Origin: Octopus vulgaris
Taxonomy: Eukaryota
Length of the DNA stretch: 64,000 nucleotides
Direction: 5' to 3'
Assembly: GCA_951406725.2 (NCBI GenBank)
Contig: OX597820.1
Coordinates: forward strand, 25,234,001 to 25,298,000
Each line of letters begins with the position of its first letter. Within the stretch, counting starts at the first letter, position 1. This document shows, in pieces, positions 21,901-62,149 of the stretch. Both the position numbers and the translations under genes were made by a program. Below the pieces are notes generated by a model. It saw only the letters and a program-made list of their open reading frames with translations. It was not told where the DNA came from and did not search any database.

Positions 21901-24900
21901 AGCAAGACACTTTATTTCACGTTGCTCCAGTTAACTCAGCTGTAGAAATGAGTTGCGACATCATTGGTGCCAAGCTGTATCGGCCTTTGCCTTTCCCTTG
22001 GATAACATCAGTGGTGTGGAGAGGAGAGTCTGGTATGCATGGGTGAGTGCTAGCCTTCCACAAACAATCTTGCCCTGACTTGTGCCTAGGAGGGTAACTT
22101 TCTAGGTCCAATCCCATGGTCTCCTCTTCATTCTATCTAACAAAGCAAAAAACAGTTAAAACTGCAGATCACATATTAAGATTATAGTATCATATTTCTG
22201 TTAGTTAATAAAAAGATTATACCCGCTTTTACATTACTTTCAGTACAACCTGCATATTTTTCTCCTTCTGTTCCAGAAAATATGAAAACCCAAGTAAGGA
22301 GGTGTATTTTCTAAGAAATTCAGAAGGTTTTAAGAAAATTATTTCAACCCTTGTTTATCCTTTTGTAAGTATTATCTTCTTAATCCCAAATATTTTCCTG
22401 CCAAGTATGTTTTTTATTTTGCTGATGAAGGACTAATGACTGAAATGTCAAGGATGTTTCCTTTCTTTTTAAGGGTTAAACTAAAGCAACATTCATTAAA
22501 ACTTGACCCTCTCATGTTGTCTTCTTTTTGAGTTCATTGTCTAATATAAACATACTTTGTAGAATTCATGTGCATGTGGTGCATATAAAGTCATCGATTA
22601 CATTGCTGATCATGTGACCAAGAGGTCAAATTTTACTAAAACATATTTATTTACATTCAGCCATTGTATGCCTCACAGAAATTTCCATGTTGCTAGAAAT
22701 TCTAGCTCTCTCTCTTTATACTGTACATCTAATTCAAGGGTTTAGCTTTGCTGGGCATGAGACATTCTGGCACAGCCGTTTTGGCCTTGCCTATTTGGCC
22801 TCGCTAATTTGATGCTGACTTACTTGACAGCAGACGTTTTAATGCTTCATTTGTTATTCTCTCCCTCCCTCTTCCTTTCTCTCTCTCATCCACTCCTCTC
22901 TCCTTCCCCTCTCTGTTTATGAGTGTAAGCATATTTCTCTGTATGAGTGTGATGAGAGGAAAAATGCCTATGTTCACTGTGTTGATTTAATATATGGCAA
23001 TATCCCCCCCCCTCTTTCTCCTTCTCTCTGTCCCTCTCTTTGTTTTTCTCTTCAACTCTCTTTATCTGTATGTGTATGTTTCTGCATACATGTGCATGTG
23101 AGTTTGCACATGTGTGTGTGTATGTGTGTGTGTGTGTGTGTGTGTTCAGCACCAAACATTCCTGTCACCTAAGCAGGACCAGTGTCCCACTCAGCCATAC
23201 CAAATCACCAGCATCCAAACAGCTGCACCCAGTTGTCTCATTTTGGCCGTGTCACATCATCTCACACTGATTCAGCCTAACAACAGTGTGAAGAGTACAC
23301 AGTGCACATGTCTGTGGAATACTCAGCCACTAGTATGGTTATTTCATGAGTAAGAATTCATCTGGTTGAGCAAACAACTGAATACTCAAAGGTTCATATT
23401 TATTTCTTTATTACCCACTGGGGGATAAACATAGAGGAGACAAACAAGGACATACAAAGGGATTAAGTCAATTACATCAACTCTAGTGCATAACTGGTAC
23501 TTATTTAATCGACCCCGAAAGGATGAAAAGCAAAGTTGACCTCAGTGGAATTTGAACTCAGAACTCAGAAATAATGCTAAGCATTTTGCCTCATGTGCTA
23601 CTACTGAGTATACTTTGAAATTATAGAAAACAATTTCATGTGGCTGTTGTCAGTGTCACGTAATTGGCACCTGTGCTGATGGCACATAAAAAGCACCTTT
23701 CGAGTGTTGGGCCTCACAGAGGCAATGACAAATGACTGAGACCTTTGGCAATATGCTGTGCTTGTGTAGAAGACTCATCCAGACAAATGAAATGGTAGTC
23801 ATCATAGGCACTGGTGTCATACAACTGACACCCGTGCCAGTGGCATGCAAAAGCACACATTACACTCTCAGAGTGGTTGGCATTAGGAAGGACATCCAGT
23901 CGTAGAAATCACACCAAATCAGACTATAGTCTGGTGCGGCCCCTCAGCTTATCAGCCCTGGTCGCACCGTTCCACCCATACCAGCATGGACAATGGATAT
24001 TGAATGATGATGGTGATGGTGATGAAATAAATAAATAGATAAATAATAACTCAACAAATAAATAAAAGAAAAAAGAAATAAGATGGTTTTTAAATGAAAA
24101 ATATTTTGCAGTTCTATATTTAAGAGATGAAGAATTATGTACATTATTTGCATTATTTACATTTGACGGATATTTGTCCTCATCTTGTTTGTTGTTAACA
24201 CAACGTTTCAGCTGATATACACTCCAGTCTTCATCAGGTGTCTTGGAGAAATTTCGAACCTGAGTTCTCATTCCTAAGGTATTTTTCGATGTTATTATCA
24301 TTATTATTATTATTATTATTATTATTATTATTATTATTATTATTATTATTATTATTATTATTCATGTCACTGCCTGGAATTGAACTCGGAACTTTATGTT
24401 AACAGCAAACAAGATGAGGACAAATATCCGTCAAATGTAAATAATGTAAATAATGCAAAAATATTTTGCTTTCCCATCATTTGTTTGTTCACTTCTTTAC
24501 TTTATGTTAATCCTTCTGTTTTGCCAGGACAAGTTTTCATCTAAAGTCATTAATGCATTAGATGGATGTAGGTGAGTGTAAAACATTTTATCCTGTCTTT
24601 GCTTGTTTGTTTCTATATATATATATCTTTCTTTCCAGTAAACTCTGCTGCTCTTTACCATACTGTTTACATCATGGAGTCTATACCTTTGTTTATTGTT
24701 ATACTTTAATCTTTTGCACTACGGTGTTTATGTTGTGATGTTCACACAATAATACGCCCCAGCATGGGCACAGTCTAATGACTTAGACAAGTAAAAGAAC
24801 AAAAGAATATATATACATACATATATGTATGCATATGTATATATATATTTGTATGTATATATGTATATATATATATAGATAGATAGATAGATAGATAGAT

Positions 24901-62149: not shown

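Follow-up and report, generated by a model that had tools for sequence, protein, structure and literature searches.

Two tail-to-tail FAAH1-type amidase genes of Octopus vulgaris differ disproportionately at positions mapped to the substrate pocket

The stretch of Octopus vulgaris DNA considered here (hereafter the window; 64,000 nucleotides, numbered 1-64,000 and corresponding to G000:C7:25234001-25298000 on the forward strand) carries most of one FAAH1-type amidase gene, A, and the 3' part of another, B. A family search of the octopus's own genome located five amidase-signature exons within 280 kb. The 17-exon models, drawn with 464 kb of neighbouring sequence added, describe a five-gene FAAH1-type cluster, in which G3 and A occupy the plus strand and G1, G2 and B the minus strand. 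Genes A and B encode 584 residues each, and all 16 introns of either gene are of the GT..AG type. The best protein matches to A and B are labelled as Octopus vulgaris, O. sinensis and O. bimaculoides FAAH1-like proteins. A preliminary description of the window had reported a tail-to-tail arrangement, and this is indeed what is found, with exons 12-17 of A on the plus strand (22277-37354) and exons 12-17 of B on the minus strand (62149-44774); the combined length of these exons (88+44+40+109+134+123 = 538 nt), the integrity of both reading frames and of every splice site (GT..AG throughout), and the places of the six peptides quoted there were all confirmed. The features are as follows (window positions, unless a contig is named):

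910..37354, plus strand: gene A, coding exons 4-17 of 17, FAAH1-type amidase of 584 aa, introns all GT..AG
G000:C7:25226713-25233150: gene A exons 1-3, upstream of the window
2248-2322, plus strand: gene A exon 5, missing from the public model P0003
7550..7756, plus strand: gene A exon 7, with catalytic S233 and S257, and with I210, where rat has F194 and gene B has K
12993-13033, plus strand: gene A exon 8
18612..18703, plus strand: gene A exon 11, codons 376-406; L389, M395 and C396 are the equivalents of E373, L380 and F381
22277..22364, plus strand: gene A exon 12, 88 nt
24528..24571, plus strand: gene A exon 13 (44 nt), encoding the second membrane-cap helix; F438, S439, V442 and L446 are the equivalents of R428, L429, F432 and M436
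27779..27818, plus strand: gene A exon 14, 40 nt
31572..31680, plus strand: gene A exon 15, 109 nt; P496 and N497 are the equivalents of G485 and R486
34717..34850, plus strand: gene A exon 16, 134 nt; P502 is the equivalent of I491 and T538 that of W531
37232..37354, plus strand: gene A exon 17 up to the stop codon, with an AATAAA/ATTAAA-type signal at 37427
44774..62149, minus strand: gene B, coding exons 12-17 of 17; 584 aa
G000:C7:25298165-25319232: gene B exons 1-11, outside the window, with K210 in exon 7
62062..62149, minus strand: gene B exon 12
60953..60996, minus strand: gene B exon 13, with V438, A439, V442, Y444 and S446
54504..54543, minus strand: gene B exon 14
52774..52882, minus strand: gene B exon 15, with S495, S496 and S497, common to B of three species
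50317..50450, minus strand: gene B exon 16, with V534, M538 (W531 equivalent) and S541
44774..44896, minus strand: gene B exon 17 up to the stop codon

Besides exon 5, the public model of gene A (P0003) lacks the first 45 residues. Intron 13 of both A and B harbors a 1.7-kb repeat (window 24954-26657 and 57916-59603; 94% identical), the two copies being oppositely oriented relative to their genes, and a more diverged copy lies at window 42073-43042. In exon 1 of paralog G3 (G000:C7:25182188-25182498, L022), the middle part, which encodes a hydrophobic N-terminal stretch, has given way to a copy of 171 nt that is 100% identical to sequence 292 nt upstream and breaks the frame from the normal start; this is either an assembly error or a recent null allele, and the ortholog in O. 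bimaculoides is whole. A lone extra copy of exon 17 with intact acceptor and stop codon (G000:C7:24999268-24999390, L040) sits 4.6 kb downstream of G1's own last exon; it is used by the public model P0128 and is possibly an alternative last exon. In exon 7 of paralog G2 (G000:C7:25113287-25113493, L029), the position of the oxyanion-hole residue I238 is occupied by Q254 in O. vulgaris; O. sinensis shares this glutamine, O. bimaculoides has leucine instead, and an Argonauta paralog has arginine. In three O. sinensis records (P0004, P0011, P0130), 5' sequence of gene A runs on into 3' sequence of G2, although in G000 these two genes lie on opposite strands; the fused records may reflect an inversion, an assembly difference or a merged annotation. 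Exon 8, the putative cytosolic-port loop, aligns with rat residues ~263-275 and is one of the exons that vary most among the five paralogs (49-78% identity).

The identification of A and B as FAAHs, already proposed in the preliminary description, is borne out by family membership, catalytic residues and predicted fold. The PF01425 scores are 318 bits for P0012 (gene B) and 273 bits for P0003 (the gene A model without exon 5), against a curated cut-off of 27. The Ser-Ser-Lys triad (rat S241, S217 and K142) corresponds to S257, S233 and K157 in A, B and the three other paralogs, and the oxyanion hole I238-G239-G240-S241 to I254-G-G-S257 in O. vulgaris A and B. Both proteins show, by eye, a hydrophobic stretch at residues ~25-41, a candidate N-terminal transmembrane helix, and the folded model begins at residue 46; the predicted model of gene B (pLDDT 94) contains the membrane-cap helices at ~424-432 and ~437-445 and matches rat FAAH with TM 0.92-0.94 (0.94 to 3QK5), an rmsd of about 2 A and 35% identity, as compared to TM 0.64-0.72 for the bacterial amidases and GatA chains among the matches listed. 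The dynamic paddle F432/W531 is absent, the equivalents being V442 in both proteins and T538 (A) or M538 (B); this is compatible with FAAH1 orthology because, according to PMC7033180, the paddle is a recent acquisition of vertebrates that other lineages lack or possess only in part. Since FAAH activity has been reported in a mussel (PMC8125337), lipid-amide hydrolysis in molluscs is established; for A and B, which by their sequences are FAAH1-type amidases, the hydrolysis of N-acylethanolamines or other fatty acid amides is the predicted activity.

Both genes appear to be transcribed, judging from runs X1 and X8, which, like X3, are presumed to be RNA, a presumption backed only by spliced joints; none of the runs listed is recorded as RNA. 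Among the matches listed, which are dominated by repeats, X8 contigs join exons 9-10 and 15-16 of gene A, one X1 contig links exons 6 and 7 of gene B precisely across the intron, its K210 codon being unaltered, and a second X1 contig passes from exon 7 into the exon 8 sequence of B. It is unlikely that an assembly error lies behind the changes in exons 15-16 of A, which an X8 contig matches with one difference. The concern, raised at the outset, that gene B could be disrupted upstream or unexpressed finds no support: its upstream exons are intact, with GT..AG throughout, and the spliced contigs of X1 come from it. Exon 7-8 joins of the G3 type occur in runs X1 and X3 as loose ends.

When considering whether selection has driven A and B apart, the counts over exons 12-17 have to be set against a neutral expectation. 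Our recount reproduced the 30 amino-acid-changing and 7 synonymous-only codons counted earlier, as well as the 6+5 = 11 replacements, without any synonymous-only codon, in the 88- and 44-nt exons (codon 450 has one silent change, but its site lies in exon 14). The excess of amino acid change that had been read from these counts does not hold, as dN/dS over these exons is ~1 or below and the changed codons are as numerous as the neutral rate predicts. By counting, dN/dS is 0.89, 1.04 and 1.14 with kappa of 1, 2 and 3, respectively (p for dN>dS of 0.66, 0.49 and 0.39), and by likelihood (GY94) it is 0.66; the value is 1.01 for exons 11-13 and 0.56-0.72 for the whole genes. Because about three in four sites are non-synonymous, a ratio of 30:7 is no excess, and the headline figure is a counting effect; region-wide positive selection on exons 12-17 is rejected (dN/dS 0.66-1.14, not significant). 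As to the neutral rate, alignable intron flanks differ between A and B by 0.087 (792/9675 sites), the median divergence in a stricter intron set is 0.06, and fourfold sites give 0.11 (22/214); yardsticks of 0.06-0.14 were used. At 0.06, 0.087, 0.11 and 0.14, the neutral codon model predicts 22.3, 31.0, 38.4 and 47.4 changed codons, respectively, with p for the observed number ranging from 0.053 to 0.999 and nearing significance only at 0.06 (p 0.053). The divergence of the introns is overdispersed, ranging over 0-26 per 100 nt with a variance/mean of 3.4, and, therefore, the yardstick itself is uncertain.

Nor is the run of 11 replacements unusual: when labels were shuffled among the 115 codons that differ, 46% of the shuffles produced a run of at least 11. 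The longest actual run is 20 (p 0.012). Exon 11 of gene A differs from that of B by 9 replacements and no synonymous-only codon, and the ratio of replacements to synonymous changes is 39:7 in codons 376-584 as compared to 26:23 in codons 77-375 (Fisher p 0.001). The 3' part is replacement-rich partly because silent changes are few there (3/66 fourfold sites, versus 16/125 in the core). It is less constrained than the core, yet no faster than neutral, whereas the core is under purifying selection: 26/299 of codons 77-375 differ, against 37-64 expected under neutrality (lower-tail p 0.027 to 2e-9).

A different result was obtained for the residues expected to contact the substrate. The pocket list, drawn up after the alignments had already been viewed, comprised 22 non-catalytic rat FAAH residues from PMC4481349 and PMC4643906, mapped via a profile of 82 FAAHs (that is, by profile alignment rather than coordinates). 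A and B differ at 11/22 of these positions as opposed to 69/562 elsewhere (Fisher 3e-5), namely, at the equivalents of F194 (I/K), E373, L380, F381 (C/W), R428, L429, M436 (L/S), G485, R486, F527 and W531 (T/M). The earlier proposal that the changes cluster at substrate regions thus survives for the pocket list, but not as a region-wide excess, and the strongest candidate, K210, lies outside the window; the accompanying mapping to the cap and channel holds roughly. Of the three residues named there, only the W531 equivalent differs; the F432 and I491 equivalents, V442 and P502, are identical in A and B. The neutral expectation for the pocket is 2.5-5.4 differences (p at most 0.0082 for all four yardsticks, 0.06-0.14), and with matching by entropy (family-wide variability) 4.0 differences are expected (p 0.0004). 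With three residues added from PMC5063142, 12/25 positions differ; upon removal of positions near alignment gaps, 8/15 do (p at most 0.014). In 37 disjoint non-Octopus pairs with a background difference of 7-18%, the mean pocket difference is 0.21 and 1/37 reaches 0.5, as do 3 of all 353 pairs. Across species, 5/22 pocket sites are gene-diagnostic versus 21/547 others (p 0.002); the O. bimaculoides A-B pair differs at 12/22 pocket positions, a count that reflects shared history and is not independent. Import of pocket states from an extant paralog was considered and rejected, at most 2/11 (S496 and V534 in B) matching one. Part of the pocket signal is regional, since lists shifted by 1-4 residues still differ at 5-8/22 positions. 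Pocket sites evolve ~1.6 times faster than the background in FAAHs generally, share a few helices and are not independent, and they change between orthologs as well (5/22 in A, 8/22 in B); the mean pocket hydropathy is much the same in both proteins (1.11 in A, 1.04 in B).

Codon models (GY94, F3x4, naive Bayes posteriors), which we scripted ourselves instead of using PAML and which assume a single tree in spite of conversion, gave a divided answer on dN/dS. Exons 12-17 are not above 1, as described above, but the pairwise A-B omega is 2.74 for the pocket (p 0.0084, becoming 0.25 if corrected for all 30 pair-by-set tests) and 0.48 for the remaining sites. With the five paralogs analysed together, omega for the pocket is 0.97, and the other 9/10 pairs yield 0.43-1.35, none significantly above 1; the site tests over the five paralogs gave p 0.59 (M1a/M2a), 0.14 (M7/M8) and a borderline 0.049 (M8a/M8). 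The branch-site test found no significant signal for B (p 0.19). The signals obtained for A (LRT 11.75, p 0.0006) and for A+B together (p 0.009) were given no weight, since the top sites in A, codons 279, 452 and 584, differ at two or three bases and are off the pocket list. Multi-base changes are a source of false positives in branch-site tests.

In the tree (a quick search, 34 rows), A and B come out as sisters (SH-aLRT 100) inside a clade of octopod sequences, and the orthologs group by gene (89, 99), with one ortholog each for A and B in O. bimaculoides; hence, the duplication is older than the split between O. vulgaris and O. bimaculoides. Cross-species comparisons were made at the protein level, using A and B of these two species (exon 14 of O. 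bimaculoides B, which is mis-modelled, was masked); no full O. sinensis record of gene A was found. Among the variable sites of this four-sequence comparison, 26 split the genes in both species and 9 split the species in both genes, while 23 are changed in O. vulgaris A only (as compared to 10 in its O. bimaculoides ortholog), 14 in O. vulgaris B only, 10 and 18 in the O. bimaculoides copies, and 16 are mixed. The 9 species-splitting sites read as a signature of conversion. The exon 12 protein is identical between O. bimaculoides A and B, and 5/6 of the exon 12 replacements between A and B are confined to O. vulgaris A; in exons 3, 6, 7 and 15, A or B is nearer to G3 than A is to B. Many of the replacements in the window thus belong to O. 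vulgaris A alone or reflect gene conversion, rather than being old fixed paralog differences. Gene conversion between the inverted copies likely homogenizes patches and explains part of the uneven silent divergence; it blurs the neutral yardstick.

The pocket states K210, A439, S446, S496 and S497 are specific to B in every species with data (S496 also occurs in G3), and S495 and S541 of B lie near those pocket positions. The most conspicuous state is K210. Its rat counterpart, F194, is one of the hydrophobic residues lining the acyl-chain channel (PMC4643906). At this position, the 71 non-cephalopod rows have Y (49), F (14), I (3), T (2), M (2) or L (1), with a charged residue in 0/71, and lysine is seen only in five gene B records from three species (fetched proteins matching a local motif). 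Six rat-to-human pocket changes, F194Y among them, are described as likely to leave ligand binding unaltered (PMC5063142). Beside the nucleophile, B orthologs carry G255S in O. bimaculoides and R259H in the O. sinensis record; position 259 is R in 71/71 other rows, and O. vulgaris B has R259.

Taken together, these data incline us slightly towards the view that A and B are intact, spliced sisters in which a few pocket-mapped residues have outpaced the neutral rate, likely because selection favored different lipid-amide substrates in the two. The catalytic core is conserved; the small set of fast-changing residues, going by the profile alignment, would form part of the walls of the acyl-chain and membrane-access channels, as their counterparts do in rat FAAH. 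The lysine and serines of B would make part of its channel more polar, and B may have shifted from long apolar acyl chains toward more polar or acidic acyl amides, with A staying nearer to the ancestral apolar pocket. This would be an ordinary duplication with likely pocket divergence. A bolder version, which we regard as unlikely, is that lysine at the F194 position and the serine-rich channel mouth make gene B a neofunctionalized hydrolase for charged or oxidized acyl amides, and that the five genes of the cluster supply octopods with a panel of lipid-amide hydrolases, each with a specificity of its own.

A serious contender, to which we assign roughly one chance in three, is relaxed constraint combined with gene conversion: the cap and channel helices, tolerant family-wide, would drift near neutral, conversion tracts of varied age would make the silent yardstick patchy, and largely redundant enzymes would be kept for dosage or tissue expression. 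The dN/dS in exons 11-13 and the five-paralog pocket omega, both about 1, fit such drift, as do the identical exon 12 proteins of O. bimaculoides, the 9 sites shared by species rather than by gene, the affinity of exons 3, 6, 7 and 15 to G3, the overdispersed introns, and the continuing turnover of pocket sites between orthologs. It does not readily account for 11/22 differences exceeding the neutral expectation at every yardstick up to 0.14 and the entropy-matched and cross-family controls as well, for the mere two of 11 states matching another extant paralog, or for the retention of K210, A439, S446 and S497 in B of three species. Alternatively, one copy might be decaying, with B (or O. vulgaris A) losing function, the odd residues being early damage and a lysine in an apolar channel impairing rather than redirecting the enzyme. 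G255S and R259H in the B orthologs, the surplus of changes specific to O. vulgaris A, and the broken exon 1 of the neighboring G3 in this assembly point that way, but the frames, 16 introns and triad of both genes are intact, the core is under purifying selection, B is intact in three species with K210 retained, O. vulgaris B has R259, and both genes yield spliced contigs, so that we consider decay improbable.

Work on how FAAH selects its substrates has concentrated on a single mammalian enzyme. The A/B pair, with 86% identity, 11 pocket-mapped differences and one charge unseen in the other FAAH1 rows here, is a compact system in which the residues that determine acyl-amide preference could be sought in the absence of the vertebrate paddle, and would be a handle on cephalopod lipid-amide signaling. 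Literature searches found no paper on such signaling in cephalopods and, by title or abstract start, none on an octopus or cephalopod FAAH expansion; supplementary gene-family tables of octopus genome papers may list the cluster. A search for work on selectivity toward N-acyl taurines yielded nothing of use. If gene B were indeed neofunctionalized within a panel of hydrolases, this would point to undescribed lipid-amide signals or dietary compounds in the octopus. In evolutionary terms, the pattern of tandem duplication, conversion and faster change near the binding site is a common one, and duplicated FAAHs with variable caps and pockets are already known (PMC7033180).

Compared to mammalian FAAH1 (rat; PDB 1MT5, 3QK5, 2WAP), the octopus enzymes have in common PF01425, the triad, the oxyanion-hole motif and the predicted fold, but differ by the missing aromatic paddle, by P502 in place of I491, by K413 and N/S497 in place of D403 and R486, and by I (A) or K (B) in place of F194; furthermore, the octopus has five tandem copies. 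The moss Physcomitrella patens likewise possesses a lineage-specific family, FAAH1-9, within which the membrane cap, the access channel and the pocket vary (PMC7033180); however, the moss paralogs are old, deeply split and of plant origin, whereas octopus A and B are a recent tandem pair, 86% identical, that shows conversion and a rate signal open to testing. In the homolog lists, proteins of many animals bear labels of FAAH1-like duplicates, and pocket sites also vary above background in the vertebrate FAAH and vitamin D3 hydroxylase-associated protein-like paralogs and in the invertebrate FAAH1-like duplicates. The octopod copies, in contrast, form a clade of their own, and it is there, rather than in any of the non-Octopus rows, that lysine occupies the F194 position.
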